64,000 bases of DNA, from assembly GCF_030013595.1 (NCBI RefSeq), contig NZ_CP122768.1; one strand, 5' to 3'. This document shows, in pieces, positions 41,508 to 60,463 of this stretch. The translations under genes were made by a program, and so were the position numbers. This DNA is from Escherichia coli (lineage in GTDB: Bacteria; Pseudomonadota; Gammaproteobacteria; Enterobacterales; Enterobacteriaceae). The notes below the pieces were generated by a model. That model did no database searches. It had not been told where the DNA came from and saw only the letters and a list, made by a program, of their open reading frames with translations. Numbering within the stretch: the first letter of the stretch is position 1; each line of letters starts with the position of its first letter.

Positions 41508-41575
41508 TGAAAATATTCGTTATTTCTGTGCCAGGATTACCTCGTCAAATTGAGTAGACGTTATGAGGTAAATAT

Positions 41576-41773: not shown

Positions 41774-41850
41774 TTAAATGGCTACGGGGCTATTGCCCCC
41801 AGCTATCCACCAGCAAATAAAAGTAACTTAATTCGATAGCAGGAGTTTTT

Positions 41851-43278: not shown

Positions 43279-43584
43279 CTATTCCTGCTCTTTGACCTTG
43301 CGTCGCTGGAGTTCTTCACGCGCGACGGTGACGAGTTGCCCGATCTCCTCGGCTGCTTTGACTCCGATTTTTTCCACCTGCGCCAGTGCATCGAGCGAAG
43401 AAACCAGGGGATTTTCTCCTCTTCCTTCTGCCTGGCGCCGGGCGATCTCCCCGCGCATGGCGGTTACTATGAATCCGGCGTTGCTTTCGCCGTCCAGTTT
43501 TACGGATTCCATGCCTTCAATAACATCATGCGGGATCCGAGCTGTCAGTGATTGTGATTTTGCGTTTTTTGAACCTGTAGCCAT
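43279..43584 (-). CDS. Putative small DNA-binding repressor (ribbon-helix-helix-like), divergent from the replication operon
   Basis: 101 aa from the ATG at 43584 behind GAGAGGA (track ORF extends to a TTG at 43599); faces a palindrome-containing intergenic region. Confidence 0.5.
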   Translation of the reverse strand: MATGSKNAKSQSLTARIPHDVIEGMESVKLDGESNAGFIVTAMRGEIARRQAEGRGENPLVSSLDALAQVEKIGVKAAEEIGQLVTVAREELQRRKVKEQE

Positions 43585-43780
43585 CTGTAATCCTCTCAAT
43601 GAAAGTGTAAGACAATATACACATAAAAAGTCTTACATAAAAGCATTGACATGTAAGCCACCCACAAATAAAGTTACTTACACCTTGTTAATGCAAGGTG
43701 CAGAAACGACGAAACCCGGCAGTGCGCGAACACTAACCGGGCTTCTAACCACCAACGATAGAGAGCTTATCGAGGTAGCT

Positions 43781-43984
43781 ATGTTAAATCATACCACACA
43801 CCCGCAAGGGCGGGACTCGCACAACCTGAATAAATACATCTGGCGTTTTATCGCCCTGAGTACGGCACAACCGCGCGTAATTCACATCGAGGCCACCAGC
43901 GAACAGGAAGCGCGTCAGCAATCTCCTGATGGCTGCGTGATGGTATTCGCTGCCCGTATTCGCCAGGAGGTGCACCATGCATAA
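43781..43984 (+). CDS. Hypothetical small protein (67 aa), first gene of the rightward operon
   Basis: ATG behind GAGGTAG; stop overlaps the start of the next gene; it is the C-terminal segment of track ORF 42644..43984. Confidence 0.4.
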   Translation: MLNHTTHPQGRDSHNLNKYIWRFIALSTAQPRVIHIEATSEQEARQQSPDGCVMVFAARIRQEVHHA

Positions 43985-44342
43985 CCTGTCAATTTCTGAC
44001 CTTAACAGCATTCAGTTTGACGAGAAATTTACCGGGCAGCTACTGGTCCATGTGGAGAACGGGCGCATAGTGCGTAATTACAACCTGCCGGATGGTGCAA
44101 TTGCCGGAAGCGTTGAAGCATTGCTGGAACTGGCAGAACGTGCGCGACTGATTAAGCCGTTAACGAGCCATCACGATGATGATCTGCATTTTACCGGACG
44201 CATGGTGAGTCACTACGAAAACGGTGTCGAGGTATCCCGCGAACGTCTGCGTGATGATTGCTGTTTCGGCACACTGCCGGAATTTATCGAATTGCTGACC
44301 GATTGCGGTTATCAGGTAATTCAGAGCAAGACGCAGGAGTAA
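43977..44342 (+). CDS. Hypothetical protein (121 aa)
   Basis: ORF coupled to the upstream and downstream genes; no recognisable motif. Confidence 0.5.
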   Translation: MHNLSISDLNSIQFDEKFTGQLLVHVENGRIVRNYNLPDGAIAGSVEALLELAERARLIKPLTSHHDDDLHFTGRMVSHYENGVEVSRERLRDDCCFGTLPEFIELLTDCGYQVIQSKTQE

Positions 44343-44348
44343 AAAACC

Positions 44349-44639
44349 ATGAAAAAGAAAAATTCTGGCTTTACTGCCAGCGGCCCCGCTCGGCCTGAAA
44401 TCAGACACGGCGATATTTACCGCGACACCAGACGCGGGGGACGAGTGGTTATTCGTCACGTTACGCCAGGCAATATCACCTACCGCCGCGAGGCTTACGA
44501 ATATGACTGCGTAATGCCGCGCCGTCAGTTTGAGCGTGATTTTATTCTGGTGGAAAACAAACAACAGGCGGTGGCGAGACGTGCAGCCACGAATATTAAA
44601 AAAATCCGGGCAATGTTGGTTGCGGGAGGTAAGAAGTGA
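44349..44639 (+). CDS. Hypothetical protein (96 aa)
   Basis: AGGAG Shine-Dalgarno; stop overlaps the GTG start of the primase gene. Confidence 0.5.
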   Translation: MKKKNSGFTASGPARPEIRHGDIYRDTRRGGRVVIRHVTPGNITYRREAYEYDCVMPRRQFERDFILVENKQQAVARRAATNIKKIRAMLVAGGKK

Positions 44640-46384
44640 AAAACGCACCGAATTTGAAATATCAGCCGAAGGATAAATTCACTGAGGTTATCATTTTTGC
44701 CGGGACGGATGCTTACGCCCATGCCCAACACTGGATTGAAAGCGAAGGACGAAAACATGGCGATAACGTGCCACCCGTTTATCTGGGGCCAAAGCAACTG
44801 GCAGACCTGGCGAATATCCGCATTGTCGACGATGAACGCCGCTTTGCGCGTGTTTATATCGCGGGGGAGATAGAGCCAATCCAGATCAACGCTATCGCTG
44901 AAAAACTGGCGCTGGCTGGCGTACAGGAGGCGAAATTATACAAAGGCATCACCGACCGGGAGCCGGAGAACTGGCGCGATTACCTGCAACGGTTACGCGA
45001 ACAGGCTGAGCGCGGAGAAATTCTGTCAGGAAGGACCGAGAAAAAACACAAAATATCTCTTTCCAGAATGGCGGACAGCCAAAGGGCAAAACTTTTAGCT
45101 GAACGATTTCAGGATGTAGCAATGAATCAGGAGAGTGAGGTTGTCCACGTCTGGCGCGATGATTTTTGGGTTCCGGTAAGCACACTGGATCTTAGTCGTG
45201 AAATGGTGGCTATTTACGAAGAAAACGGAACAGCGTTTAGCCGGAGAGCAATAAGCAATGCAGTGGATGCTTTAAAAGTTATGGCCAGGCCAATGGGGGA
45301 GCCGTCAGGTGATTTATTGCCGTTCGCTAATGGCGTGTTTGACCTGAAAACTGGCGAATTTTCCCCGCACTCGCTGGATAACTGGATCACCACGCATAAC
45401 GGCATTGAGTACACGCCACCAGCACCAGGGGAGAACATCCGCGACAACGCGCCAAACTTTCATAAATGGCTTGATCACGCTGCAGGAAAAGACCCGCGAA
45501 AGATGATGCGTATATGCGCTGCGCTGTACATGATTATGGCTAACCGGTACGACTGGCAAATGTTTATTGAGGCCACAGGAGACGGCGGGAGCGGCAAGAG
45601 CACATTTACGCACATAGCCACCCTTCTGGCAGGGAAACAGAACACGGTAAGCGCCGAAATGACATCGCTTGATGATGCTGGCGGGCGTGCACAGGTTGTC
45701 GGAAGTCGTCTTATTGTCCTGACAGACCAGCCGAAATATACAGGCGAAGGATCGGGAATCAAGAAAATAACTGGCGGCGACCCCGTGGAAATTAACCCGA
45801 AATATGAGAAGCGTTTCACAGCAATTATCAGGGCTGTCGTGCTGGCAACAAACAACGTGCCGATGATATTCACCGAACGGGCCGGAGGCGTTGCACGTCG
45901 ACGTGTAATTTTTCAGTTCGATAATATTGTAAGGGAGGCCGAAAAGGATAAAGAATTACCGCAAAAGATAGCGGCAGAAATACCTGTCATTATTCGTCGA
46001 CTGCTTACTAACTTTTCAGATCCAGAAAAAGCACGAGAATTATTGCTTGATCAGCGTGACGGTGCCGAAGCTCTGAAAATAAAACAGGAAACTGATCCTG
46101 TCATTGGGTTATGTGCGGCGCTTGCATTTCTTGACGAACCGCATGGAATGATGATGGGAGGCGGTAAGAGAACAGTTGACCTTAACCCACGTACAAGTCT
46201 GTACAGGCTTTATCTTGCCTTTATGGAGTACATAGGCAAAGAAGAAAAATTAAGTGTTAATGATTTTGGTAAGGCCATGAAGGCGGCTGCAAGAGAATAT
46301 GGAGCTGAATATCTGACCAGAGGTTTTAAAGGACGAACACAAACTAACGTTATAAGAACGGAGAGAACCGAGGAATTTTTATAA
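44636..46384 (+). CDS. Phage/plasmid primase-helicase (P4-alpha / PICI Pri-Rep type, SF3 P-loop)
   Basis: Walker A GDGGSGKST and Walker B-like LIVLTDQP; GTG start behind GGAGG; iterons immediately downstream. Confidence 0.85.
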   Translation: MKNAPNLKYQPKDKFTEVIIFAGTDAYAHAQHWIESEGRKHGDNVPPVYLGPKQLADLANIRIVDDERRFARVYIAGEIEPIQINAIAEKLALAGVQEAKLYKGITDREPENWRDYLQRLREQAERGEILSGRTEKKHKISLSRMADSQRAKLLAERFQDVAMNQESEVVHVWRDDFWVPVSTLDLSREMVAIYEENGTAFSRRAISNAVDALKVMARPMGEPSGDLLPFANGVFDLKTGEFSPHSLDNWITTHNGIEYTPPAPGENIRDNAPNFHKWLDHAAGKDPRKMMRICAALYMIMANRYDWQMFIEATGDGGSGKSTFTHIATLLAGKQNTVSAEMTSLDDAGGRAQVVGSRLIVLTDQPKYTGEGSGIKKITGGDPVEINPKYEKRFTAIIRAVVLATNNVPMIFTERAGGVARRRVIFQFDNIVREAEKDKELPQKIAAEIPVIIRRLLTNFSDPEKARELLLDQRDGAEALKIKQETDPVIGLCAALAFLDEPHGMMMGGGKRTVDLNPRTSLYRLYLAFMEYIGKEEKLSVNDFGKAMKAAAREYGAEYLTRGFKGRTQTNVIRTERTEEFL

Positions 46385-46401
46385 GAGTAATGCCTGCAAC
46401 A

Positions 46402-46691
46402 GGTAGACGGGTAGATATTGGGTAGATGCTAGTTTTATGGATGCCTACCCGCTGAATCCCTTGCGCCACAAGGGATTCAGCGAAATAGGTAGATAGGGTA
46501 GACAATATCTCGCTTAAAAACTTTTTTACGCAGCGAAAGGAAAATACAGGTTAGAGAATGGAGAGTTAAAAGAAAGTCACTTTTACTATCTACCCTATCT
46601 ACCTAATAGATAAAAGTTGTTTTTTATCATTGTGTTAAGTGGGTAGATAACCGTTTCTTTGTTGTCTACCTGTTATCTACCTTGTCTACCC
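46402..46691. repeat. Putative replication origin: at least 11 copies of the iteron GGGTAGA(T/C) in both orientations, an 11-bp-arm hairpin and an AT-rich stretch
   Basis: Iterons at 46402, 46409, 46420, 46488, 46496, 46588, 46597, 46641, 46664, 46675 and 46684; inverted repeat CTGAATCCCTT/AAGGGATTCAG at 46452-46480. Confidence 0.7.
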
Positions 46692-46760
46692 ATAAGATGA
46701 AAGTACCGGATACGCCGTGAAGGTGCAGGCAGTGAAGCCCTGGTTATCGCATGTACCAAG

Positions 46761-47108
46761 ATGAAGGATGCGGAGGAACTGAAAGAAATGGCTTGCGATT
46801 TGCGCGAGGTTGAGCTTTTCAAGGATGAAGGCGGGGAGTTAATCACGTCGTTGGTGCTGGAGGATAAGCCCCGCCCACCCGTTGAACTGGAGCGCATCGA
46901 GTACGCTGCTAACAAGACAGAGAATCACGACGCGCTATGGGGCTGTATCCGTTCACGCACACAGCGCGGCGATAAATGCACTATCCCGTTGTTGCGCGAT
47001 GACATGAAAAAGCTGGGGTATGAGATGAAACACTTCCGGCGCTGGCTGTACAAGCTGGAAAGCGACGGCGTAATCGCTATTGACGGTGATTATGTGCGCC
47101 CACTGTAA
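46761..47108 (+). CDS. Hypothetical protein (115 aa)
   Basis: ORF only; sits between the origin and the GTGAGGA array. Confidence 0.4.
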   Translation: MKDAEELKEMACDLREVELFKDEGGELITSLVLEDKPRPPVELERIEYAANKTENHDALWGCIRSRTQRGDKCTIPLLRDDMKKLGYEMKHFRRWLYKLESDGVIAIDGDYVRPL

Positions 47109-47495
47109 AAAGTGAGGAGCAAAAGTGAGGATGGCGGGTAATTTAACAAAAAATCAACGCCACTCCTCACTTTCTCACCTGTATATAGGTCAAAAAGTGA
47201 GGAGTTAAAAACACATTGCAAAACAACAGATTACAACAATAAAGAAAACGACTGAGGAGCAGAACAAGAATAATAAAAAGTGAGGAACAAAAGTGAGGAA
47301 TGGTGAGTTAATAGAAATGAGGTAATAAAAATAACAGGTAGGTTAAAAAACACACCATGCAAGATATTAACTAAAACTTAACTATTTACCTCACTTTTGC
47401 GTATATATAAGGATTAAAAAGTGAGTACTTAAAAATACATTTAAAATCATATTGTTATTAACTTCATAAATTTTCACTGTGCAGCAGGTGAGGAA
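47107..47495. repeat. AT-rich non-coding array of at least 8 copies of AAAGTGAGGA (both orientations)
   Basis: Copies at about 47107, 47121, 47161 (inverted), 47193, 47276, 47289, 47388 (inverted), 47417 and 47487; no ORF of 60 aa or more. Confidence 0.6.
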
Positions 47496-47574
47496 TTAAA
47501 AAATCAGGAATGTTAAAAATGAAAACAGAATGTTGTGTCAGTGCCGTTGGGCAACGTAGCAACCAGTAAAAACG

Positions 47575-48117
47575 ATGGGGCAAAGCATGACTAAGCTGAC
47601 CATTAACAGAAAACCGAAAGGCATTTACGGCACGCCGCAGAAAACGACGCAGGCGGCGCAGGAGCAGGATAAAACCACATCGGCGCATAAAGTGATGCCC
47701 GGTAACCAGAAAGCGCAGCAGAAGCCCACAGGGGCGACACCGTGGCGGCATATGACCAAACGCCAGCGCAAAAACCGCAGGCGCGTTAACCGCCTCACTG
47801 AGTTGTGGCCTGAATTATTCAGCCGGGAAGCACCGAAGCCGCTTAAGGTGGGGATATTCGACGACCTGATGCAGGATCTCGCCGTCAGGGGGCTGGCATT
47901 CGGTCCAGGGGCATTGCGTGCGACGCTGGCATCTTATGCGCAGTGTCCGCGCTATTACCGCGCCTTAATGGCTGGTGGGGTACGCTACGACCTGAAAGGC
48001 CAGCCGTGCGGCGAGGTGACACCACAGGAACAACAGGACGCCGAAACGCGGCTGGTGGCGCTGAATGAGAAGCGCAAACGTCAGCGCCGGGCAGCAAAGG
48101 AGAAAACAGGCGCATGA
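47575..48117 (+). CDS. ProQ/FinO-domain RNA-binding protein
   Basis: LTELWPELFSREAPKPLKVGIFDDLMQDL...RATLASYAQCPRYYRALMAGGVRYDLKGQPCGEV parallels the recalled ProQ N-terminal domain (RFPHCF...RPLKIGIFQDL...RVDLDGNPCGE). Confidence 0.7.
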   Translation: MGQSMTKLTINRKPKGIYGTPQKTTQAAQEQDKTTSAHKVMPGNQKAQQKPTGATPWRHMTKRQRKNRRRVNRLTELWPELFSREAPKPLKVGIFDDLMQDLAVRGLAFGPGALRATLASYAQCPRYYRALMAGGVRYDLKGQPCGEVTPQEQQDAETRLVALNEKRKRQRRAAKEKTGA

Positions 48118-48401
48118 TTCACGACAGCAAAGCGGAAGCACTGGAAGCGCGTGGTCTGTACCGGAGAGCGGCGGCGCGGTGGGCTGAGGTCATCATGCTG
48201 GCGAATGATGACAAGGCACGGGAACAGGCGGCAAAACGTCGCGCGGAATGTATCCGCAAGGCAGCACGCCCACCAGCAAGGCAGGATAATTTCGGGGAAA
48301 TGCGCGAAACCATCAGCCGGGCACATGCCGGGATGGGATTACATCAGCCCAATGGTAAGGCATTCAGGAAATACCCTGGATCGAAAAATTGCAGTCAGTG
48401 A
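48114..48401 (+). CDS. PerC-family transcriptional regulator (copy 1)
   Basis: MIHDSKAEALEARGLYRRAAARWAEVIM...RRAECIRKA matches the PerC/Pch family signature as I recall it; ATGA overlap with the ProQ/FinO gene. Confidence 0.7.
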   Translation: MIHDSKAEALEARGLYRRAAARWAEVIMLANDDKAREQAAKRRAECIRKAARPPARQDNFGEMRETISRAHAGMGLHQPNGKAFRKYPGSKNCSQ

Positions 48402-48405
48402 CAGA

Positions 48406-48430
48406 AGCCGGGATTTTTCCCGGCTTTTTT
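48406..48430 (+). terminator. Rho-independent terminator after the PerC-like gene
   Basis: AGCCGGG-attttt-CCCGGCT followed by a T6 run. Confidence 0.75.
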
Positions 48431-48442
48431 GTGCCAGTAAAA

Positions 48443-48477
48443 AGCCCGCAGCCAGAAGTGTTGCGGGCTTTGTTTTT
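48443..48477 (+). terminator. Second tandem rho-independent terminator
   Basis: AGCCCGCA...TGCGGGCT followed by TTGTTTTT. Confidence 0.65.
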
Positions 48478-48596
48478 CAGGTGATTGAAGTCAATGGGAA
48501 GAACGCGATCATCATGCGTTATCGCTTCATAAATTGCAACGATGTAGATCGTTATTTCAGTTTGTGCAATCATAATCATTGTTTTGTTCAGGAGAT

Positions 48597-48776
48597 ATGA
48601 CTATGAGAAAAGCCAGCGTGAAACCCGTTTTACTCGCTCGTGATCAGATTGAAGCATTACAGCGCATCCAGGACGAGGAACGCCGCAATTCTCCGCTGGG
48701 GATTGCTCCGAGCATTCATGAGGTCGCCCGGCGTTTAATGCAGCGGGCGCTTTATCCCGTAGAACGTCCGGCCTGA
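48597..48776 (+). CDS. Hypothetical small protein (59 aa)
   Basis: ATG behind CAGGAG; MTMRKASVKPVLLARDQIEALQRIQDEE... Confidence 0.4.
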   Translation: MTMRKASVKPVLLARDQIEALQRIQDEERRNSPLGIAPSIHEVARRLMQRALYPVERPA

Positions 48777-48815
48777 TGGTCGTGATTTTTTGGTGAAAAA
48801 AGAGAGGTGGTAAAA

Positions 48816-49400
48816 ATGCCAGCAAGCAAAGAAGATTTGCGATTAAAACTGATGGAGGTGGTTAACGCTCTGTCAGAGTCGCAGGGCAGCACTCCGCAGG
48901 AGATTATCGAAATTCTGAATGCGATCCCCGCACAGGATTTCACAAAAGCGGACGAGGATGACGCGAATAAAAACATCGTCGCGTCAGTCGAAGATGAATC
49001 CTCACTGGCAGAAGCCCAGGCTAAAGCGGATTCCGCATACAGCAATATGGGCCGTCGCGCTCCAGCCCCGTTTGCTGGTGAAAAGTCGATGGATTACCGC
49101 AAGCGTGCATTAATTGGTGCACAGAAGCTGGCTAAAAAATTCAGTGATGTGGATATTCGTTCCGTTTCAGATTCTGCAACGCTGGCGGTGCTGGAAGATC
49201 AGATTTACCAGGCTGCAAAAGACAGTGTTCAGTGGGCTGTGGAAAATACGCCGGGCTATTTGCGTAAAACCGTAAGAATGGATGAAGCCGGACGGCGGAT
49301 TACTGAATATCAGGGGGATCCGAATAACTGGCTTAGTGCTTTCAAAATCCCTCCCCGTCGCCTGGTTAAAATTAACGTTGCAAGCCTCGCGGGGGCATGA
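48816..49400 (+). CDS. Hypothetical protein (194 aa)
   Basis: ATG behind GAGGTGG; acidic, with predicted helical regions; no recognisable motif. Confidence 0.5.
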   Translation: MPASKEDLRLKLMEVVNALSESQGSTPQEIIEILNAIPAQDFTKADEDDANKNIVASVEDESSLAEAQAKADSAYSNMGRRAPAPFAGEKSMDYRKRALIGAQKLAKKFSDVDIRSVSDSATLAVLEDQIYQAAKDSVQWAVENTPGYLRKTVRMDEAGRRITEYQGDPNNWLSAFKIPPRRLVKINVASLAGA

Positions 49401-49464
49401 AAAACGTGCTGATTTCAGCCCTGCCGGATTTGGTGGGGCTTATTGCTTATAACCGGGGGACATT

Positions 49465-50118
49465 ATGCTTTTAACAGAAATTGAGGCGGCAAAGCAGATT
49501 CGGGACGGTCAGCTACCGTCGCCTTATCAGTTTTCCAACATGTGGCTGATTAACCTGCGTATCACAGGAACCGGAATGGCCTATCGCGCCGAAGAAAAAG
49601 AATTTGTCTGGCGTTCACCGCAAACTTATCTCAATCCGCAGTTCCTGGAACGTTGCGCCGGAGTACCCGTCATTATCGACCATCCCGAAAGCAAAACCCT
49701 TGAAGACGTGGGCGAACGGTCGCGCATTATTGGCACCGTTATGTTGCCGTATATTCGCGGTGACGAGGTGTGGGGCGTATGCCGGATTTACGGGCAGGAA
49801 ATCATCGATTACATCCAGAAAGCACGGGGGGAGGTATCCACCAGCCCGTCGGTTGTGTTTTGTGGTGCGTCCGGTGGGGCAGAAGTTCCTGATGTAATGG
49901 GCGAGGACAATTTTTTCATTGAGGGTACGCCATTTCTTATCGATCACGTTGCGCTCGTACCGTTGGGCGTATGGGATAAGGGCGGGAAACCATCAGGTGT
50001 GGAAGTAACAACGCCGACAGAAGAAGAACAGCTCGCCGGAATGGTCCGTGAAGTTATTGATGCGGCCTGCAAGCCAGCCCTGGAAAAACTGGAAGAAATA
50101 TCCGGGCGCTGGCTATGA
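49465..50118 (+). CDS. Hypothetical protein (217 aa)
   Basis: ORF behind a GGGGGA Shine-Dalgarno; no recognisable motif. Confidence 0.5.
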   Translation: MLLTEIEAAKQIRDGQLPSPYQFSNMWLINLRITGTGMAYRAEEKEFVWRSPQTYLNPQFLERCAGVPVIIDHPESKTLEDVGERSRIIGTVMLPYIRGDEVWGVCRIYGQEIIDYIQKARGEVSTSPSVVFCGASGGAEVPDVMGEDNFFIEGTPFLIDHVALVPLGVWDKGGKPSGVEVTTPTEEEQLAGMVREVIDAACKPALEKLEEISGRWL

Positions 50119-50288
50119 ATCGTGGGATTGTCCCTGCAGCAGGAAACAATGATCAGAACGTTAAGTTGGAAATTGTTCGGAACGCTGGTGCCGATTACTT
50201 CGCGCAACTAATTGGTGCTCAACGGTTCCTGGGATGATTTAAATACACGCGCTTTCCGGCGCATTAATACAGTCTGAGGGGAAGTGTC

Positions 50289-50813
50289 ATGTTTATGAGC
50301 AAGGCAGAATATGCCAAACACAAAGGCGTAAGCCGCCAGACAGTTTACGACTGGATCGAGAAAGGCGAAGTGGTCATGTCCGGTAAAAAAATCGATGTGG
50401 AAGCGACAGAGCAGCGGAACAGCCCACCAGCACAGGGAAAAGATACCGTTTCTGAAATGTGGCCAGAGAGAACGCTGGAAATGACGTGGGGCGAGTTCTG
50501 GAAAGCAGTTAAGGCCAGAGACGGTAAAATCCCTGCACCAGTAACGGACGATGACATACAGCAGCGTGTGCAGGATGCAGCCGGGGAACTATGCTGTGAA
50601 GTGCAATTTCTTGATGATGGTGCTATCTGCCTTGAGGATTATGCTGGGCAATATTACTTTGAGCAGTATGATTTTCGGGAAAATGCCAGGCTGGCAATTC
50701 GTATGCTGCGTTGTGAGCTCTGCTATGTTGCAGGTGATTGTCCCGATGAGCTGGATAACTGGAGTGAAGCCGGACTAAACGCCCTGGCTGAGTGGGAAAA
50801 ATCATCCCATTAA
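50289..50813 (+). CDS. HTH-domain protein (small-terminase / Rpp-like N-terminus)
   Basis: N-terminus SKAEYAKHKGVSRQTVYDWIEKGEV is a typical HTH as seen in phage small terminase subunits; followed by a repeat array. Confidence 0.5.
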   Translation: MFMSKAEYAKHKGVSRQTVYDWIEKGEVVMSGKKIDVEATEQRNSPPAQGKDTVSEMWPERTLEMTWGEFWKAVKARDGKIPAPVTDDDIQQRVQDAAGELCCEVQFLDDGAICLEDYAGQYYFEQYDFRENARLAIRMLRCELCYVAGDCPDELDNWSEAGLNALAEWEKSSH

Positions 50814-50826
50814 TGACCGTAAAATT

Positions 50827-51110
50827 CGCGAAAAGTGTCAAGTCAGGCCGTCTGCCGGGTTGACACTTTACACTCTGAACGCGAAAAAGTGTCAACCTCG
50901 CTGTAAGCCCCGCCATTACTGGCCTTTCGCCAGATTTACCACGTCAAAAAGCCGAAAAAATCGCGAAAAGTGTCAAGTTGCCATGCTTAGAAATGCTAAG
51001 GTTTGATAAGGTTTTTCGCGAAAAAGTGTCAAGTGTGTCAACCTGCGATGTTAAGATTTGTTAAGGTCTTAAGCCGGAAAGTGTCAACCAGCCCCTAAGA
51101 TTTCCTAAGG
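50827..51110. repeat. Array of at least 6 copies of CGCGAAAAGTGTCAA plus three TAAG(A/G)TTT doublets
   Basis: Copies at about 50827, 50861 (inverted), 50880, 50960, 51016 and 51078; non-coding. Confidence 0.6.
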
Positions 51111-51118
51111 TGTAAATC

Positions 51119-51409
51119 ATGACCATCACCGAAGCCGATATGCTGGAGATGATCCGCAGCATTGCCGGAATCAGACCACCAGCAGGCAAACAGGAGGCCA
51201 CGCAGCCGGACAGCGTTATCGCTGAGAACTATGCGCGTGTGGTGGCTGAGGTGATGCGCCGTGACGGTATTGAGCTTAACGGAGTGGATATGCGCGACAT
51301 ACGCACCAGGGTACTCGAGTTATTGGCCTACCGTCGCCGCGTGCAGATGTACCGGGAGAGCGAGAAAAAGACTTACCAGTGGAAGAAGCCGGAGCGGTTA
51401 CGGCGGTAA
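51119..51409 (+). CDS. Hypothetical protein (96 aa)
   Basis: ORF behind an AAGGTG Shine-Dalgarno. Confidence 0.45.
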   Translation: MTITEADMLEMIRSIAGIRPPAGKQEATQPDSVIAENYARVVAEVMRRDGIELNGVDMRDIRTRVLELLAYRRRVQMYRESEKKTYQWKKPERLRR

Positions 51410-51459
51410 CCAGTTGATAAAAAGGCTCCTCAATTTTGAGGAGGGTAGCTGGTGGCTGG

Positions 51460-51481
51460 CAGAATGTAAATTTACATTCTG
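51460..51481. terminator. Perfect 22-bp palindrome between convergent genes (bidirectional terminator or protein site)
   Basis: CAGAATGTAAATTTACATTCTG, preceded by a second hairpin CTCCTCA-attt-TGAGGAG at 51426-51443. Confidence 0.5.
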
Positions 51482-51511
51482 GTGATTTAATCATCTGATT
51501 TACCCGATGGC

Positions 51512-51802
51512 TTACCTTACCAGGCCATAGCGGATTACCGTGCAATGCGCACCATCGCCACCAATACGCACATCAAAACGTGGCTCACGGACTTTCACAC
51601 GCTCCAGCAACTTATCACGAACCATAGCGTTTAGCGTCCTTCGTGTTGCCTCTATGTGATATCGCTGATATTCGGAACCATAGAGCAGCACTGTAACACC
51701 ACGAACATCAAAAGGTGGATCTCCAGCCTCCACCCGCACCCAATCGCGATACTCAGGTTTGTAGAGTTCAAGGATCTGTTTTTTGTGCCTGGTCATTCTC
51801 AT
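51512..51802 (-). CDS. Hypothetical protein (96 aa)
   Basis: Minus-strand ORF with a protein-like composition; palindromic operator upstream. Confidence 0.45.
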   Translation of the reverse strand: MRMTRHKKQILELYKPEYRDWVRVEAGDPPFDVRGVTVLLYGSEYQRYHIEATRRTLNAMVRDKLLERVKVREPRFDVRIGGDGAHCTVIRYGLVR

Positions 51803-51916
51803 GCGTGCAACTCCTTATTGTGGGACAGTACTGTCATACAATAAGCTATACGGAAAATTATCAAAAGAACAGAAACCAACCATTCAGATTTAACAGGTAT
51901 CAATGGGATTATGCTT

Positions 51917-52219
51917 ATGGTGCATGATGACAAAGCGGAAGAACTGGAAGCGAAAGGCTTATGGCGACGGGCGGCTAATCGCTGGGGTGAGTTACTGAAA
52001 CAGGCGGCAAGTGATGAAGCGCGTCAGTATGTAACGGAACGACGAACGGCATGCATCCGGAAGGCAACCATAACCCGGGAACCGGAAAGAGACCTGATTT
52101 GTGCCATAAGAACCGCCGCCACAAAAACACTAACGGATATGGGGATCGACCTGAAAAAAGAAGATCCACTGCGGGGCATTCAGCACGGACATACAAAGCA
52201 GGATAAACGCAGGAAGTAA
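51917..52219 (+). CDS. PerC-family transcriptional regulator (copy 2)
   Basis: MVHDDKAEELEAKGLWRRAANRWGELL...RRTACIRKA parallels copy 1 at 48114 (clear paralogue); alternative ATG at 51911. Confidence 0.7.
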   Translation: MVHDDKAEELEAKGLWRRAANRWGELLKQAASDEARQYVTERRTACIRKATITREPERDLICAIRTAATKTLTDMGIDLKKEDPLRGIQHGHTKQDKRRK

Positions 52220-53082
52220 ATTTTTTCGTGTAACCAGGCAACCGACTATCTGAAAGATAGTCACACCCTACCGGGATCACGCTAGTAACGCACAACAGAG
52301 TGACCCATAGCCACCCTGTTTAACCGTTCCGGCTGGCTGGGCAGATTTTGCGCGGGTCTTATAGTCCCTCACAACAGAGTAAATAAAATTGACTTGGTTA
52401 CAGAGTAACCAAACCGGAGATTCCCGGTTTGCTCAAAAAATGACAATGAGTTACGCCCCTAACCTAAGTAATCCTTACATTCACTGCATCATCACCATGA
52501 TGGTGACGCAGCCCACCAGCAACCATAACGATTTCCGTTACAGTTGATGTGCTTTTTTGCTGGTAAGGCGTAACCCGTTGATTGTTCCAGAATCCACCAT
52601 CGGTGGAAGTTGAAAAACTCACCCGCCAGATTCTGAATGGTGAAAATCACCGGGGATCTGAATAGGCATTTCCTCTATGGAGGTCGCACCGTTTTCGGGA
52701 GAAGGTGCGATCATGTTCGTCATACCTGTTCCGTTGAAACGGAATACCCCATTCCGGCGTAGCTGGTGGACGCACAGCCACATACGAAAAATTGCATTCA
52801 GGAGGGGGGATCGAAATCCCTACCCCCCATTGCTTATGGGACCGCCCGCCCCGTCAAATTTTTACACCCGCGAAATTAAAAAAATGCGTCGCGCTGGTGG
52901 GCCTGATGCCGATATGGGGATTCCCATAACGGGTTATCCATGATCATCCACCAGCTTGATAACGGATAACAGGGGATGCGAAATCCTCAAGCGAGTGATA
53001 AACGTGTATAGAAATGTGTATAGAATCTATTTTAGAACTCGAGAATGTGCCTTTATTACTGGTCTTGTTGCTTGTTGTATTG

Positions 53083-53101
53083 TTCCCTTCGCCCGCTCCA
53101 A
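53083..53101. repeat. attR: 19-bp direct repeat of the tRNA-Gly 3' end at the right island junction
   Basis: TTCCCTTCGCCCGCTCCAA is identical to 39026-39044. Confidence 0.85.
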
Positions 53102-53333
53102 TTTATCTTCACCTCATCAACCTGTCATTTTTGTTGTATCTGATTTTCTATATTATCTTAATTCAATCGCTTCAGACTTTTCGCAATCGCCGAAATACTT
53201 CCCCATTTTGTTGTAAATAAAAAGCGTTTACGCAATGCAATCCTTTTGTAACAACCCAGGTAAAATACCTTATTTTCAAGTTGTTAAATAAGTGGTTATC
53301 TACGCTTTTAACAAACGATTGATGGAATATTTT

Positions 53334-54944
53334 ATGAAAGGGAAATCTGCATTAACGCTTCTGCTTGCTGGTATATTTTCGTGCTGCACATGCCAGGCGA
53401 CATGGGCAGAAGTGACGAGTGACTCCGTATTTAACATTCTTAATTCCAGGGGGGAAGCAATAGATAAAAGTTATTTATCGTTAAATCCAGATAAGTATCC
53501 TAATTATCGTCTTCTGATTCACTCAGCCAAATTACAAAATGAAATAAAGAGCCACTATACCAAAGACGAAATTCAAGGATTGTTTACATTAACAGAAAAC
53601 ACACGAAAGTTAGCGTTGACGGAGAAACCCTGGGGAACGTTTATTCTTGCTTCTACTTTCGAAGATGACAAAACAGCGACAGAAACCCACTATGATGCTG
53701 TCTGGCTGAGGGATAGTTTATGGGGCTATATGGCATTAGTATCAGATCAGGAAAATAGGGTAGCTGCAAAAAAGATTCTGCTCACCCTGTGGGATTATAT
53801 GTCTACGCCCGACCAGATTAAGCGGATGCAGGATGTCATTAGCAACCCAAAACGACTGGATGGAATTCCCGGGCAAATGAATGCTGTGCATATCCGATTT
53901 GACAGCAACTCCCCCGTGATGGCAGATGTGCAGGAAGAAGGCAAGCCGCAGCTGTGGAACCATAAACAAAATGATGCTTTAGGTCTTTATCTTGATCTCC
54001 TTATACAAGCCATCGACACTGGTACTATTAACGCTGAAGACTGGGAAAAAGGTGACCGATTAAAATCGATTGCGCTGTTGGTTGCTTATCTGGATAAATC
54101 CAATTTCTATATTATGGAAGATTCTGGAGCGTGGGAAGAAGATGCCCGATTAAACACATCTTCCGTTGCACTGGTGACCTCGGGACTGGAACGTTTGTCG
54201 AACTTACTCTCGAAGAAAGACTCTGTTTTTATTTCTGATTTACTACGCGAAGCTAAAGCCAATGAACTGGATGAAACTTTTTCAACAACGAGGTTGAACC
54301 ATCTCATAGATAAAGGGTATGAAAGAATAACGCTACAGCTTGATTTAGGGGGAGAATCCCCTGGTTATCTGGAAAAAGATAAACATTACAGAGAAGCTGA
54401 TGCGGCCTTACTTAATGTTATTTATCCTGCAAATCTTTCAAAGATAAACACCAGAAGAAAAGAGCAAGTTCTAAAAATAGTTAAAAAACTAGCAGGTCCG
54501 TATGGTATAAAAAGATACGAGAAGGATAATTATCAGTCGGCAAATTTTTGGTTCAATGATATTAAAACTGATACTGATGAAAATTCACATGCGAAAAGAG
54601 AAATGAGCTTCATTCCATCAACAGAAGCAGAATGGTTTTTTGACTCATGGTATGCAAAATCAGCAGCAATTGTTTATAAAGAATCAAGAAAAGAAGAGTA
54701 TTTGAATGACTCAGTGCAATTTATGAATAGATCATTGGCCCAAATAACAGGCGAGAATATGATTGGTGCAAATGGCAGGAGCGTACCAGAAATGGCACTT
54801 CCCGAAAGCTATAACTATATCCACAAGTCGGGAACTTTGCATGAAGCGCCAAGCCCTATCATTCCGCTAAATTGGTCGAAAGCTTCAATGACTCTCATGT
54901 TGAAAGAGATGTCCAACCTTATCAATGATGAGGGAATTAAATAG
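53334..54944 (+). CDS. Secreted hypothetical protein flanking ETT2 (possibly glycoside-hydrolase-like)
   Basis: Signal peptide MKGKSALTLLLAGIFSCCTCQATWA; AT-rich; DAVWLRDSLWG motif is weakly reminiscent of (alpha/alpha)6 glycosidases; sits where ygeP/ygeQ lie in K-12 as I recall. Confidence 0.55.
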   Translation: MKGKSALTLLLAGIFSCCTCQATWAEVTSDSVFNILNSRGEAIDKSYLSLNPDKYPNYRLLIHSAKLQNEIKSHYTKDEIQGLFTLTENTRKLALTEKPWGTFILASTFEDDKTATETHYDAVWLRDSLWGYMALVSDQENRVAAKKILLTLWDYMSTPDQIKRMQDVISNPKRLDGIPGQMNAVHIRFDSNSPVMADVQEEGKPQLWNHKQNDALGLYLDLLIQAIDTGTINAEDWEKGDRLKSIALLVAYLDKSNFYIMEDSGAWEEDARLNTSSVALVTSGLERLSNLLSKKDSVFISDLLREAKANELDETFSTTRLNHLIDKGYERITLQLDLGGESPGYLEKDKHYREADAALLNVIYPANLSKINTRRKEQVLKIVKKLAGPYGIKRYEKDNYQSANFWFNDIKTDTDENSHAKREMSFIPSTEAEWFFDSWYAKSAAIVYKESRKEEYLNDSVQFMNRSLAQITGENMIGANGRSVPEMALPESYNYIHKSGTLHEAPSPIIPLNWSKASMTLMLKEMSNLINDEGIK

Positions 54945-55233
54945 TTTTCATAATGAGGCGGTCCTGGATTAAAAGGACCGCTCAAAGAGAAATCGTAAGG
55001 GAGGTAAAAGTGATCAATAAATTACTGTTAGCTTACCTGATAGGTCTGGTTGTAACATCGACCTTAATATTTATCTTCTCGGAAGAAAAAGTAACATATC
55101 GGTTGTTTGCTGCAGTAATTACAGGGTTGACCTGGCCGCTTAGCCTCATTCCATCCATCATAAGTCTCATAATTCGTAAATCCGACTAACAAGAAATTTA
55201 TATGAACGATTAAGAAAAATAGTGGATTTGCCC

Positions 55234-56139
55234 CTATATTTCCAGACATCTGTTATCACTTAACCCATTACAGGCCCGCTGCCGCAGATATTCCCGTGGC
55301 GAGCGATAACCCAGCGCACTATGCGGATGCCATTCGTTATAATGCTCGAACGCCTCTGCAAGGTTCTTTGCTGCCGTTAACCCGTCTGGTTTGGGCATGA
55401 TACTGATGTAGTCACGCTTTATCGTTTTCACGAAGCTCTCTGCTATTCCGTTACTCTCCGGACTCCGCACCGCCGTGTTCTTCGGTTCAAGTCCCAACAT
55501 CCGGGCGAACTGGCGTGTTTCATTAGCCCGGTAGCATGAACCATTATCCGTCAGCCACTCCACTGGAGACGACGGAAGATCGTTGCCGAAGCGGCGTTCC
55601 ACCGCTCCCAGCATGACGTCCTGTACTGTTTCACTGTTGAAGCCGCCGGTAGTCACCGCCCAGTGCAGTGCCTCACGATCACAGCAGTCCAGCGCGAACG
55701 TGACACGCAGTCTCTCTCCGTTATCACAGCAGAACTCGAACCCGTCAGAGCACCATCGCTGATTGCTTTCTTTCACGGCCACTCTGCCTGTATGTGCCCG
55801 TTTCGATGGCGGTACAGCAGGTTTTCGCTCAAGCAACAGCGCATTCTGGCGCATGATCCGGTAAACACGTTTGGCATTGATCGCAGGCATACCATCAAGT
55901 TCTGCCTGTCTGCGAAGCAGCGCCCATACCCGACGATAACCATACGTGGGCAGCTCTCCGATAACATGGTGTATACGGAGAAGCACATCCGTATCATCAG
56001 TGTGACGACTGCGGCGGCCATCCATCCAGTCATCGGTTCGTCTGAGAATGACGTGCAACTGCGCACGCGACACCCGGAGACAACGGCTGACTAAGCTTAC
56101 TCCCCATCCCCGGGCAATAAGGGCGCGTGCGCTATCCAC
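55234..56139 (-). CDS. insD: IS2 transposase OrfB (DDE integrase core)
   Basis: 301-aa ORF matching IS2 InsD as recalled. Confidence 0.9.
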
Positions 56140-56462
56140 TTTTTTGCCCGTCCATATTCAACGGCTTCTTTGAGGAGTTCATTTTCCATCGTTTTCTTGC
56201 CGAGCAGGCGCTGGAGTTCTTTAATCTGCTTCATGGCGGCAGCAAGTTCAGAGGCAGGAACAACCTGTTCTCCGGCGGCGACAGCAGTAAGACTTCCTTC
56301 CTGGTATTGCTTACGCCAGAGAAATAACTGGCTGGCTGCTACACCATGTTGCCGGGCAACGAGGGAGACCGTCATCCCCGGTTCAAAGCTCTGCTGAACA
56401 ATTGCGATCTTTTCCTGTGTGGTACGCCGTCTGCGTTTCTCCGGCCCTAAGACATCAATCAT
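56097..56462 (-). CDS. insC: IS2 transposase OrfA
   Basis: [52 protein letters not shown]...; HTH; overlaps insD for -1 frameshift fusion. Confidence 0.9.
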
Positions 56463-56870
56463 CTGTTCTCCAATGACTAGTCTAAAAACTAGTATTAAGA
56501 CTATCACTTATTTAAGTGATACTGGTTGTCTGGAGATTCAGGGGGCCAGTCTAAATAGAATCGAAAAAGAGAATAAAATATATGCAGGGAGTAACAAAAC
56601 ACTCGCAGTGCGTTAATGTGTAACTAACAAATATGATTTTTATTGAAAATAGTCACCAAATAAGTGTTATAAGAAATACGGGGTATGTTTAAGTAAAACA
56701 TATCAACAGTTGCAATTCTGTATATGGACAGGATGACTTACTACTGTAAGTGGCTGATAGCTATTCGCTCATAACAAAATCATTATTTTATAAATAGGAA
56801 TCATCACTTTTTAATCATGTTTTTATTGCAAGTTTATGGAGAATGAGAATATGGAATAAGGAGATGAAAC

Positions 56871-57620
56871 ATGATTGAAGAAGGGCTGTTACTTCCAATG
56901 AATGTTTTGCTTCAAGGACAGAAGTTAACCCTACTGGATCCTGAAATGTGGTTCTTACGGGGAAATGAAAACAAGGATGTAACCCTTGTTATTACGATTG
57001 GTAATAACCACCAAAAATTAATGGTAGTGGAAGACATATTACTGCTCATTGACCGAAGCCAAATTGAGGTAACTGCAGGGAAAGTAATTTATCATCCACT
57101 TCGCATTGATATCCTGAGTAAATTATTAGCTTTTATAGATGAATCAACGGGGAGTGTGGAAAGGGAACACCATGAGTTGTTTGCTGATGCCTTGCCCTTT
57201 GCATCAGAAGTTGTGCTATTCAGTAAAGTTGCAAGTGAAGCCTGGTTTTTAGCCACTTATCTGAGCAGCGATAATATTAATGCAATTCTGTTTCAGCATC
57301 TAAGAAAAACAGAATGCTATAAACTGGTTCGCTATTTATTATCGCAATCGCTCATACAGACTTCACTCTATGATCTTGGTGAGCTTTACGGCGTATCGTA
57401 TTCACATTTTCGCCGTTTATGTAGTTATGCATTGGGTGGTAAAGTTAAAACGGAATTATGTGGCTGGAGAGTTGCCAGAGCAGTGTTGGAAATCATTGAA
57501 GGAAACAGTGATATGACAACTATTGCGCATAAATATGGCTACTCATCCTCATCACACTTTTCAGCCGAAGTAAAAAGCCGGTTAGGAAAAACACCGAGAG
57601 AACTATGTAAAAAGTTATGA
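56871..57620 (+). CDS. eivF: AraC-family T3SS transcriptional regulator (InvF-like)
   Basis: C-terminal AraC HTH (YGYSSSSHFSAEVKSRLGKTPRE); AAGGAG Shine-Dalgarno; first gene of the inv-like operon. Confidence 0.8.
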   Translation: MIEEGLLLPMNVLLQGQKLTLLDPEMWFLRGNENKDVTLVITIGNNHQKLMVVEDILLLIDRSQIEVTAGKVIYHPLRIDILSKLLAFIDESTGSVEREHHELFADALPFASEVVLFSKVASEAWFLATYLSSDNINAILFQHLRKTECYKLVRYLLSQSLIQTSLYDLGELYGVSYSHFRRLCSYALGGKVKTELCGWRVARAVLEIIEGNSDMTTIAHKYGYSSSSHFSAEVKSRLGKTPRELCKKL

Positions 57621-59320
57621 AAATAAAATTACGTATTACTATTATATTAATTTCAGCCTTATGCATTTTTAATGGATTATTGACTCCTGGTGCATATGCC
57701 GCAACAGCGAATGGATACGTAGCAAATAAAGAAAATCTACGTAGTTTTTTTGAAACGGTTTCATCATATGCGGGTAAGCCTACAATAGTAAGTAAGCTTG
57801 CCATGAAGAAACAGATCAGCGGAAATTTTGATTTAACCGAACCCTATGCCTTGATTGAACGCCTGTCGGCGCAGATGGGACTTATTTGGTACGATGATGG
57901 CAAAGCTATTTATATCTATGACTCATCAGAGATGCGTAATGCGCTGATTAATCTGAGAAAGGTATCGACGAATGAGTTTAATAAATTTTTAAAAAAATCG
58001 GGTCTGTATAACTCTCGTTATGAAATTAAAGGGGGCGGCAATGGTACTTTCTATGTTTCGGGGCCACCGGTTTATGTTGACCTGGTCGTTAATGCTGCGA
58101 AATTAATGGAGCAAAACAGCGATGGCATCGAGATCGGACGCAATAAAGTAGGGATTATTCACCTGGTCAACACATTCGTTAATGATCGGACTTATGAATT
58201 ACGTGGCGAAAAGATAGTTATTCCTGGCATGGCAAAAGTACTATCGACGTTGTTAAATAATAACATTAAGCAAAGCACTGGGGTTAACGTACTTTCTGAA
58301 ATTTCAAGTCGTCAACAACTAAAAAACGTATCACGTATGCCTCCTTTTCCTGGTGCTGAAGAAGATGATGATCTACAAGTAGAGAAAATAATATCGACAG
58401 CTGGAGCGCCAGAGACTGACGATATACAAATTATTGCATATCCTGATACCAACAGTTTACTTGTTAAAGGAACAGTATCTCAGGTTGATTTTATCGAGAA
58501 GTTAGTAGCTACACTCGATATTCCAAAGCGACACATTGAATTATCTTTATGGATAATAGATATTGATAAGACTGATTTAGAACAGTTAGGAGCTGACTGG
58601 TCGGGCACGATAAAAATTGGATCCAGCCTAAGTGCATCATTTAATAATTCAGGTTCAATTAGTACCCTGGATGGGACACAGTTTATTGCAACAATACAGG
58701 CACTTGCGCAAAAAAGAAGAGCCGCCGTTGTTGCTCGTCCTGTCGTTTTAACACAGGAGAATATTCCTGCTATATTTGATAATAACCGTACTTTCTATAC
58801 TAAATTAGTCGGCGAGCGTACTGCGGAGTTGGATGAAGTAACTTATGGTACGATGATTAGCGTGCTACCACGATTTGCTTCGCGAAATCAAATTGAATTA
58901 CTCTTGAATATTGAAGATGGCAATGAAATCAATTCTGACAAGACCAATGTTGATGATCTGCCTCAGGTTGGTAGAACGCTTATAAGTACTATTGCGCGCG
59001 TGCCTCAAGGGAAAAGTCTTTTGATTGGTGGATATACACGAGATACGAATACCTATGAAAGTCGCAAGATCCCAATATTAGGCAGTATTCCATTTATTGG
59101 TAAATTATTTGGATATGAAGGAACAAATGCGAATAACATCGTTCGTGTCTTTCTTATTGAGCCAAGAGAGATCGATGAGCGCATGATGAATAATGCGAAT
59201 GAGGCTGCGGTTGACGCCAGAGCAATAACACAGCAAATGGCAAAAAATAAAGAAATCAACGATGAATTACTGCAGAAATGGATAAAAACTTACCTGAATC
59301 GTGAAGTCGTCGGAGGATAG
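57617..59320 (+). CDS. eivG: Type III secretion outer-membrane secretin (InvG/SctC-like)
   Basis: 567 aa with signal peptide and conserved secretin C-domain; ATGA overlap with eivF. Confidence 0.85.
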   Translation: MKIKLRITIILISALCIFNGLLTPGAYAATANGYVANKENLRSFFETVSSYAGKPTIVSKLAMKKQISGNFDLTEPYALIERLSAQMGLIWYDDGKAIYIYDSSEMRNALINLRKVSTNEFNKFLKKSGLYNSRYEIKGGGNGTFYVSGPPVYVDLVVNAAKLMEQNSDGIEIGRNKVGIIHLVNTFVNDRTYELRGEKIVIPGMAKVLSTLLNNNIKQSTGVNVLSEISSRQQLKNVSRMPPFPGAEEDDDLQVEKIISTAGAPETDDIQIIAYPDTNSLLVKGTVSQVDFIEKLVATLDIPKRHIELSLWIIDIDKTDLEQLGADWSGTIKIGSSLSASFNNSGSISTLDGTQFIATIQALAQKRRAAVVARPVVLTQENIPAIFDNNRTFYTKLVGERTAELDEVTYGTMISVLPRFASRNQIELLLNIEDGNEINSDKTNVDDLPQVGRTLISTIARVPQGKSLLIGGYTRDTNTYESRKIPILGSIPFIGKLFGYEGTNANNIVRVFLIEPREIDERMMNNANEAAVDARAITQQMAKNKEINDELLQKWIKTYLNREVVGG

Positions 59321-59324
59321 TGAA

Positions 59325-60437
59325 ATGGCGATTCATGTAGAACATGTCGGTGTATTAGAAAGAGCCAGAGAAGTTTCTCGCTTAGAGGACATTATCACAG
59401 AAGATAATGAAGATATTGAAGCTGAAATGCCTAAAATGGGAGATGATCCCGCCGGTAAAGAAGCTCGATTCTTACAAGCTACTGACGAGATGTCAGCAGC
59501 GTTAACGCAGTTTATGAAGAAAAAAATCTACGAAGAACAACTGGCCAACTTTCTGGACGGAGAAGAATATGTCCTGGAAGATCAGCCAATAGAAAAAACC
59601 GATAAAGTCATGGAGGCGCTTAAGGCAGCAACTACCCATGACTATGAAGTGTATAGCTTTGCTAAAAAATTATTTCCAGATGAAAGCGATCTGGTGGTTG
59701 TATTACGTGCAATTTTACGTAAAAAACAAATATCTGAAAATGTGCGGCTAAACGCTGAAGCATTACTTAAAAAAGTTAATCAAGAGACTACTAAAAAATT
59801 CATTAATAGCGGTATTAACTCGGCATTAAAAGCAAAGTTATTTGGCCAGGCATTGTCATTAAATCCAAAATTACTAAGGGCAAGTTATCGACAGTTTTTA
59901 ATGGCAGAAGACGATGCTGTAGATACTTATGTCGAATGGATTGGTAGTTATGGCTATCAAAATAGAATACTGGTGACAAAATTTATCAAAGAGACGCTTT
60001 TCTCAGATATAAATGCACTTGATGCGAGCTGTTCATCATTGGAATTTGGTATGTTTCTCAATAAGTTGTCACAACTATTGTCTCTTCAGTCAGCAGAGGC
60101 TTTATTTCTGAAAACTTTAATAAATAACCCAATAATTAAAAAATTTATTAGCGCAGAAGATTATTGGATATTTTTTCTGATATCGTTAATAAAATTTCCT
60201 GAGACAGCAGAGGAACTCCTGAAAAATGCACTGGTAACCCTACCCGCAGATGCTAATTATAAAGACAAAACGTTACTCCTGAAGGCGATTTACAGCGGAT
60301 GTACAAATCTTCCATTTTCACTTTTTATTAATAATGAACAATTATTAGAGATTAGGGAGTGTTGTAAACAGGCAATAAAAGTAACATTTGCAGCAGAGCT
60401 CTTTGATACACAAAACAGTAATAAAAAAACAAAATAA
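59325..60437 (+). CDS. eivE: Type III secretion gatekeeper (InvE/SctW-like)
   Basis: ATG behind GGAGGA; 370 aa; synteny between the secretin and SctV. Confidence 0.75.
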   Translation: MAIHVEHVGVLERAREVSRLEDIITEDNEDIEAEMPKMGDDPAGKEARFLQATDEMSAALTQFMKKKIYEEQLANFLDGEEYVLEDQPIEKTDKVMEALKAATTHDYEVYSFAKKLFPDESDLVVVLRAILRKKQISENVRLNAEALLKKVNQETTKKFINSGINSALKAKLFGQALSLNPKLLRASYRQFLMAEDDAVDTYVEWIGSYGYQNRILVTKFIKETLFSDINALDASCSSLEFGMFLNKLSQLLSLQSAEALFLKTLINNPIIKKFISAEDYWIFFLISLIKFPETAEELLKNALVTLPADANYKDKTLLLKAIYSGCTNLPFSLFINNEQLLEIRECCKQAIKVTFAAELFDTQNSNKKTK

Positions 60438-60463
60438 AAAACCATGGAAGAAGGTAATGTTCA

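Follow-up and report, generated by a model that had tools for sequence, protein, structure and literature searches.

IS2 is among the best-studied insertion sequences, and ETT2 is known for its mutational attrition. The element is bounded by a 42-bp left inverted repeat (IRL) with a TA-3' terminus and a 41-bp right inverted repeat (IRR) with a CA-3' terminus. It transposes by cleavage of one strand at IRR and joining of that strand next to IRL, which gives a figure-of-eight that is replicated into a minicircle (PMC3299598, PMC3219604). The abutted ends form the promoter Pjunc, with an outward -35 in IRR and a -10 in IRL that are held apart by a mandatory 17-bp spacer (PMC3299598, PMC3219604), and in IS2 fusion promoters the -35 is likewise the outward hexamer of IRR (review PMC9330008). 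Target choice has been tied to intrinsic DNA curvature by Lewis and co-workers, who also cite a region of phage P1 as a 'hot target' (PMC3299598). Within ETT2, ygeH has previously been reported to carry a ~1.3-kb transposase insertion (PMC11068852). Another copy, IS2H, is found in E. coli K-12 MG1655 at NC_000913.3 2996361-2997691, between the pseudogenes ygeO and ygeP; K-12 lacks the genes from eivF through eprK.

The window, which is the whole 64-kb stretch of DNA analysed here, contains one IS2 copy, located just upstream of eivF and with its transposase on the minus strand (Table 1). As the preliminary description of this DNA had proposed, it is a complete element with intact ends, measuring exactly 1331 bp. 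On the plus strand its left end opens with TGGATTTGCCCC / TGGATTTGCCCCTATATTTCC, which is IRR, and its right end closes with GGGGGCCAGTCTA, which is IRL. The terminal inverted repeats, TAGACTGGCCCCC... and ...GGGGCAAATCCA, are the same as those of the K-12 copy except for a G at IS2 position 32, in IRL; roughly half of 15 compared IS2 copies carry this G, and it is a common polymorphism. If IS2 is defined by a size of ~1.33 kb and a DNA identity of 95% or more with a reference IS2, the window copy clearly belongs here, with only 4 mismatches to IS2H. Its coding content is also that of IS2. Full-length matches to NCBIfam models were obtained for OrfA, with 'IS2 repressor TnpA' (276 bits, cut-off 229; E 3e-83), and for OrfB, with 'IS2 transposase TnpB' (728 bits, cut-off 597; E 1e-219). 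The Pfam domains are HTH_Tnp_1 for OrfA and, for OrfB, rve, rve_3, and HTH_21. Both proteins are identical to their K-12 counterparts, InsC4 and InsD4, respectively. The A6G heptamer occupies IS2 positions 409-415 (window 56145-56139) and is in the frame needed for the programmed frameshift. The element is therefore IS2 itself, a well-known E. coli IS, and this copy is intact and, judging from its sequence, probably still mobile.

We next turn to the insertion site. The 5-bp target-site duplication expected of IS2 is present as AATAG on both sides, also upon the careful alignment that the preliminary description had asked for in case the duplication should turn out to be missing. AATAG occurs in the window at a frequency of about 7e-4 per position. 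The duplication is not a chance match, because excision of IS2 together with one AATAG rebuilds a 71-bp stretch that is identical to the unoccupied site of E. coli HCP5S3_I2; the same stretch has one mismatch to EAEC 042. In both of these strains an uninterrupted spacer with a single AATAG lies between the GhoT/OrtT-like gene and eivF, and the pentamer is invariant across five ETT2 lineages. The insertion was therefore a simple one, with no loss of adjacent sequence, which bears out the earlier reading of a simple transposition with an AATAG duplication and no adjacent deletion. The span first given for it, 55218-56559, was right in its start and in the element that it encloses, and ran one base too far at its end, since the right AATAG ends at 56558.

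Table 1. Features at the IS2 insertion in the window, and IS2 insertions of other strains at window-equivalent positions.
Feature	Position	Strand or orientation	Basis
GhoT/OrtT-family small toxin gene, 59 codons, homologue of ECs3735/ydcX	55010..55189	+	Pfam Toxin_GhoT_OrtT E = 1e-11; annotated likewise in relatives
Putative promoter-like hybrid TGGAAA-N17-TATTTT at IRR/flank junction, antisense to toxin gene	55216..55244	-	looser scan, 8/12; predicted
Target-site duplication AATAG, left copy	55218..55222		single AATAG in unoccupied sites of HCP5S3_I2 and 042
IS2, IS3 family	55223..56553	-	length, ends, alignment to K-12 IS2H
IRR, right inverted repeat, 41 bp, ends CA-3', carries outward-reading -35 TGGAAA	55223..55263	-	sequence; PMC3299598, PMC3219604
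orfB (insD), 301 aa, DDE/rve catalytic domain	55234..56139	-	NCBIfam, Pfam
orfA (insC), 121 aa, helix-turn-helix repressor	56097..56462	-	NCBIfam, Pfam
A6G slippery heptamer for programmed -1 frameshift to OrfAB	56139..56145	-	motif per PMC3219604
IRL, left inverted repeat, 42 bp, ends TA-3', faces eivF	56512..56553	-	sequence
Target-site duplication AATAG, right copy	56554..56558		single AATAG in unoccupied sites
Native eivF-upstream sequence, 312 bp, untouched by insertion	56559..56870	+	mean column identity 97% over five lineages
eivF, InvF-like AraC-family regulator	56871..57620	+	NCBIfam InvF; annotation in HCP5S3_I2
IS2 insertion, 14EC033	53293	same as window	5-bp duplication
IS2 insertion, JNEC-KY204	53583	opposite	5-bp duplication
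IS2 insertion, Res13-Lact-ER02-39	54125	same as window	5-bp duplication
IS2 insertion, 201609 and AW1.7	54138	same as window	5-bp duplication
IS2 insertion, CM2	54139	opposite	5-bp duplication
IS2 insertion, ESDR8	54193	opposite	5-bp duplication
IS2 insertion, OkiPb01676	54922	opposite	5-bp duplication
IS2 insertion, VE-V10-F	56662	same as window	5-bp duplication AAGTG
IS2 insertion, CFIAFB20180540	56752	same as window	5-bp duplication GGCTG
IS2 insertion, ETEC4068	58412	same as window	5-bp duplication
IS2 insertion, AB66	58423	same as window	5-bp duplication

The surroundings of the element are those of an ETT2 island. To the left of IS2 lie a GH15-family gene (53292-54944), which is named ygeQ or pkgA in other strains, and the small toxin gene, the stop codon of which is 28 bp ahead of the left AATAG. 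IS2 entered the 345-bp spacer between this GhoT/OrtT-like gene and eivF, with IRR facing the toxin gene and IRL facing eivF. From the end of IS2 to the eivF ATG (56871) we measured 317 nt, and the IS2 transposase is divergent from eivF, in agreement with the earlier estimate of about 320 bp and an opposite orientation. The eivF stop codon overlaps the eivG start by 4 bp, and eivE, eivA, and eivC follow in the order of the ETT2 eiv genes. With NCBIfam InvF the eivF product scored 185 bits, under the cut-off of 259 bits, and it is therefore a homologue of InvF and not InvF itself; its DNA is identical to the gene annotated eivF in HCP5S3_I2. From 56553 to 64000 the window is collinear with the ETT2 of EAEC 042 (99.3% identity) and of HCP5S3_I2 (99.9%). 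In an Rfam scan of 54800-57000 no hit was significant (best E = 0.84).

To see how widespread this insertion is, we searched 5,426 complete E. coli genomes. With IS2 plus 1 kb on each side as the query, the same arrangement was found in no genome. Among the same genomes a 300-bp query for the right junction matched none, and a 300-bp query for the left junction gave only two split matches, which both represent different insertion sites. Exact scans likewise returned 0 matches for the left junction in a metagenome collection and 0 matches for the right junction in the GTDB species-representative genomes. On the other hand, 1,315 complete genomes out of the 5,426 have the site uninterrupted. The closest relative, HCP5S3_I2, is a pig faecal isolate that is 99.92-99.95% identical to the window flanks over about 28 kb. 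This genome has 20 matching places to the query of IS2 with its flanks, which is consistent with the presence of many IS2 copies, although the number refers to matching places and not to counted copies. One IS2 of HCP5S3_I2 is of special relevance for the source of the window copy: G900 and C1281 of the window copy occur together in only one of 14 other IS2 copies, and this is the copy in ygeH of HCP5S3_I2. The corresponding ygeH position would fall beyond 64000, outside the window. Altogether, the insertion is private to the lineage of this strain, and we infer that it is recent.

The data are readily described by the normal IS2 pathway, the use of which we infer from the sequence. In this scheme, one strand would be cut at IRR and joined beside IRL as a figure-of-eight, which would be replicated into a minicircle with the abutted ends forming the Pjunc promoter. 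Both minicircle ends would subsequently attack the target symmetrically, with a 5-bp stagger at AATAG, and repair of this stagger would produce the AATAG duplication as the footprint of the final step. The element most likely came from one of numerous identical copies of IS2 that would reside in the lineage. In all, we hold it to be very probable that this is an ordinary IS2 insertion, recent and private to its lineage, with little or no effect on its neighbours.

We then considered what the insertion might do to eivF. The consequence is most likely none or small, because the eivF-proximal 312 bp are untouched and the outward-promoting IRR faces away; a material effect on eivF has a low probability, and the arrangement of the sequence would argue against a strong one. 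The alternative is that of a regulatory insertion, in which IS2 would lower transcription of eivF and the eiv operon by cutting off distal promoter or activator sites, or would raise it by breaking a tract of H-NS silencing. IS1 and IS5 upstream of bgl and flhDC are known to break H-NS silencing in this way. The G+C content here is 51-56% within IS2 and 33-40% in the flanks, and a 1.3-kb block of such composition in AT-rich DNA could in principle disturb silencing by H-NS. In EAEC 042, eivF is expressed less in a ygeH mutant and more when hns is mutated, ETT2 genes including eivF being up-regulated in the latter case (PMC4210603), and EtrB represses eivF by a mechanism that was described as unclear (PMC10877973). 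When the spacer is unoccupied, its highest-scoring sigma-70-like sequence, TTTATA-17-TAGAAT (9/12), spans the point at which IS2 went in, and the insertion interrupts the -10 hexamer; should this be a genuine distal promoter of eivF, the effect of IS2 would not be neutral. Yet AT-rich DNA commonly contains such matches, of which this is one among several here, and its -35 varies in O157 as well as in two further lineages. A standard promoter scan showed no excess over shuffled sequence, and with the standard promoter and terminator scan no plus-strand promoter was found between IS2 and eivF; with a looser promoter scan, the matches agreed with the consensus at just 8 or 9 of 12 positions. Footprinting of the spacer over five lineages showed a uniform identity of 97%, in which only the 130 bp proximal to the ATG stand out, and our literature search found no mapped eivF promoter, EtrB or YgeH binding site, or transcription start site. 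The 312 bp next to eivF are intact, moreover, and IRL, the end that faces this gene, is without a known outward promoter. Taken together, we consider a regulatory insertion to be unlikely. EivF represses LEE secretion in EHEC, and an altered EivF level would thus give a phenotype in a LEE-positive strain; if the present strain carries LEE and the insertion altered EivF levels, virulence regulation could shift.

On the other side of the element, the -35 TGGAAA of IRR and the flanking TATTTT might constitute a fusion promoter that would drive antisense transcription over the GhoT/OrtT-like toxin gene and GH15. The geometry of this hybrid is the one that we read in Pjunc itself (TGGAAA-N17-TAGACT), for which the 17-bp spacer is mandatory (PMC3299598, PMC3219604), and IS2 fusion promoters of this type have been documented at ampC (Jaurin & Normark 1983), acrEF, and neoR (PMC9330008). 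As in these cases, the same element supplies the outward -35 from IRR, and the flank offers a -10-like hexamer at a distance of 17 bp. The hybrid nevertheless agrees with the consensus at only 8 of 12 positions and is under the threshold of the standard scan. Furthermore, unlike in the known fusion promoters, IRR in the window is directed towards the toxin gene (3' end) and not towards eivF, and any promoter would be antisense. Activity of such a hybrid, as predicted from the sequence, is in our view rather improbable.

Independent IS2 insertions recurred in the same part of ETT2. When IS2 ends in the fetched loci were mapped onto 042 and expressed as window-equivalent positions, at least 12 other IS2 positions were obtained at the 5-kb glyU-proximal edge of ETT2, in both orientations and with the K-12 breakpoint at 54470 included (Table 1). 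The first eight nearby insertions all had the orientation of the window copy, and this suggested an orientation bias that we rejected after a query with inverted IS2, which found the opposite orientation in 17 genomes versus 11 with the same orientation (at least 80% coverage). The apparent bias arose because the search joins same-strand pieces only. The AT-rich DNA of ETT2 would fit a curvature-linked targeting of IS2, by analogy with the published work on target choice, and the repeated hits are consistent with a contribution of IS2 to ETT2 decay. The glyU-proximal edge may be a regional IS2 hot spot that drives ETT2 attrition. As an account of the window insertion, however, it is quite doubtful that IS2 here is to be seen either as an ETT2 regulatory mutation, through removal of a distal eivF promoter, a broken H-NS tract, or antisense transcription against the toxin gene, or as the product of a hot spot at the ETT2 edge; an ordinary insertion remains our preferred reading.

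Two further explanations carry very little weight. An assembly artefact, in which an IS2 copy was misplaced during repeat resolution, might be suspected since IS2 is apparently multicopy in the related genome (20 matching places) and the window allele was found nowhere else, but we regard it as extremely improbable because a misassembly would not yield a perfect 5-bp duplication of the unoccupied-site sequence together with canonical ends. The other explanation concerns K-12, and for this we aligned K-12, 042, and the window. As had been stated in the preliminary description, an IS2 is found close to this place in K-12, which is without the eiv genes, and the same description suggested that the window could show the state before the deletion. 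The ygeP-side junction of IS2H corresponds to window-equivalent position 54470, inside GH15 (ygeP/ygeQ) and 752 bp to the left of the window insertion, and its other junction lies inside orgA, at 042 locus position 37191. Between them IS2H replaces 16,942 bp of EAEC 042 sequence, and the window insertion site falls within this lost segment. The junctions of the window copy, at 55222 and 56554, are not shared with IS2H, which is moreover inverted relative to its flanks when compared with the window copy (IS2 on the plus strand and flanks on the minus strand in the alignment). The pre-deletion idea is thereby refuted, the insertion point in K-12 being a different one, and we likewise rejected the window IS2 as an ancestor of the IS2H lineage, with which it has neither a junction nor the orientation in common. 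Of the 5,426 complete genomes, 370 carry the ygeP-side junction of K-12 and 358 its ygeO-side junction, with roughly 12 having the former but lacking the latter. An origin of the ETT2 deletion of K-12 in an IS2 located at exactly the window site is hardly conceivable: the location of IS2H next to the missing eivF-eprK segment and its lack of a target duplication (flanking pentamers TTTAT and AACTT), as expected following an IS-associated deletion, would be in line with it, but the K-12 junctions are elsewhere and inverted, the window site is inside the segment that was lost, and neither junction of the window copy is kept beside a deletion in any complete genome.

A clean IS2 insertion upstream of eivF is an already known kind of event. 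Its significance is small, with IS2 being well studied, ETT2 attrition being known, and the ygeH insertion being on record. It has modest uses in that it corrects the idea of a K-12 pre-deletion state and adds to the recurrent IS2 hits at the ETT2 edge, and the private insertion allele could serve as a marker of the strain or lineage.

Compared with the known copies, the window IS2 is closest to the one that disrupts ygeH in HCP5S3_I2 (NZ_CM149870.1; locus L009, 40471-41801), which is 100% identical over 1331 bp and has the same orientation in the same ETT2 island, whereas it is located ~19.5 kb away and has the duplication TGTCT. In VE-V10-F and CFIAFB20180540, IS2 occupies the same ortT-eivF spacer in the same orientation and with clean 5-bp duplications, 108 and 198 bp nearer to eivF, respectively; unlike in the window, eivF of these strains is already truncated by an eivF'-'eivA deletion. 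IS2H resembles the window copy in its length of 1331 bp, in 1327 of 1331 bases, and in its InsC/InsD proteins, A6G site, and terminal sequences. Of the four substitutions, one is G32 in IRL, two fall in orfB and are synonymous, and the fourth is located 51 nt from the right end. The two copies differ in chromosomal position and orientation, and of these two only the window copy has kept its target duplication, a 5-bp duplication like that of other simple IS2 insertions.

We observed that in K-12 MG1655 a segment of 16,942 bp of the ETT2 island, running from within GH15 (the gene to the left of the toxin gene) to within orgA, was replaced by IS2H, the IS2 copy between ygeO and ygeP, and that this copy carried no target duplication. 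Among complete genomes, the junction on the ygeP side was present in 370 and the junction on the ygeO side in 358. About 12 genomes therefore retain a single IS2H junction, and intermediates or further deletions might be found among these. ETT2 had also been shortened by two recurrent deletions without an adjoining IS, which were seen in various strains (loci L004, L005, L010, L011 and L014). Since the IS2 copies near these deletions had kept intact duplications, we excluded them as the cause of either loss. Coordinates of the features are collected in the table.

Coordinates and extents of features in the window and in compared loci (window column: window or window-equivalent positions)
Feature	Window	Other locus	Strand	Extent or strains
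tRNA-Gly(CCC) glyU	38970-39043			
19-bp direct repeat TTCCCTTCGCCCGCTCCAA, bounding the glyU element	39026-39044 and 53083-53101			
IS2 cluster in GH15 (window-equivalent)	54125-54197	042 locus L008, 19903-19975		
TTTATA-17-TAGAAT candidate	55197-55222 joined to 56559-56561		plus	
IS2H		K-12 MG1655 locus L001, 12362-13692		
ETT2 deletion 1				start just past GH15, end in eivJ; Res13-type strains
ETT2 deletion 2				eivF 5' end fused to eivA 3' part; AW1.7, VE-V10-F and OkiPb strains

The GH15 gene itself contained four independent IS2 target positions within 73 bp. One of these (duplication GAAGA) was occupied by a true IS2 in strain AW1.7 and, in strain 201609, by an IS2-like element that is 95.6% identical to it and points the same way; the IS2-like element was also found in strain CM2, inverted and one base from this position. 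This clustering points to either a genuine hot spot or the swapping of one IS for another via recombination.

On the other side of GH15, a 14,057-bp integrative element (39045-53101) inserted in glyU holds this tRNA gene and ETT2 apart in the window. It encodes a tyrosine integrase, an AntA-like protein, a D5-type primase/helicase, a ProQ/FinO protein and a DUF2213 protein, and because of this protein set we read it as suggesting a P4-like or satellite-type island. The element was not present at the same site in the three genomes compared (EAEC 042, the closest relative HCP5S3_I2, and K-12).

Closer to the eiv operon, the top sigma-70-like match of the ortT-eivF spacer in a reconstruction of the unoccupied site was TTTATA-17-TAGAAT, a candidate only; the IS2 target lies within it, and the insertion splits the -10 hexamer. 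Further along, at the 3' end of eivE, an InvE-like gatekeeper gene, the homopolymer at 60423-60429 was A7 in the window versus A6 in both 042 and HCP5S3_I2. The extra A, which may reflect either true slippage or a mistake in sequencing the homopolymer, shifts the frame of the last codons, gives an early stop at 60435-60437 and abolishes the overlap of eivE with the eivA start.

Finally, ygeH was disrupted in HCP5S3_I2 by an IS2 (locus L009, 40471-41801) whose sequence is identical to that of the copy in the window. The product of ygeH is a HilA-like activator of ETT2, and the position of this insertion falls past the window's end. If the window's genome also has this insertion, the eiv operon may already be without its activator. 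A 1.3-kb transposase insertion in ygeH is likewise on record for APEC isoforms (PMC11068852).
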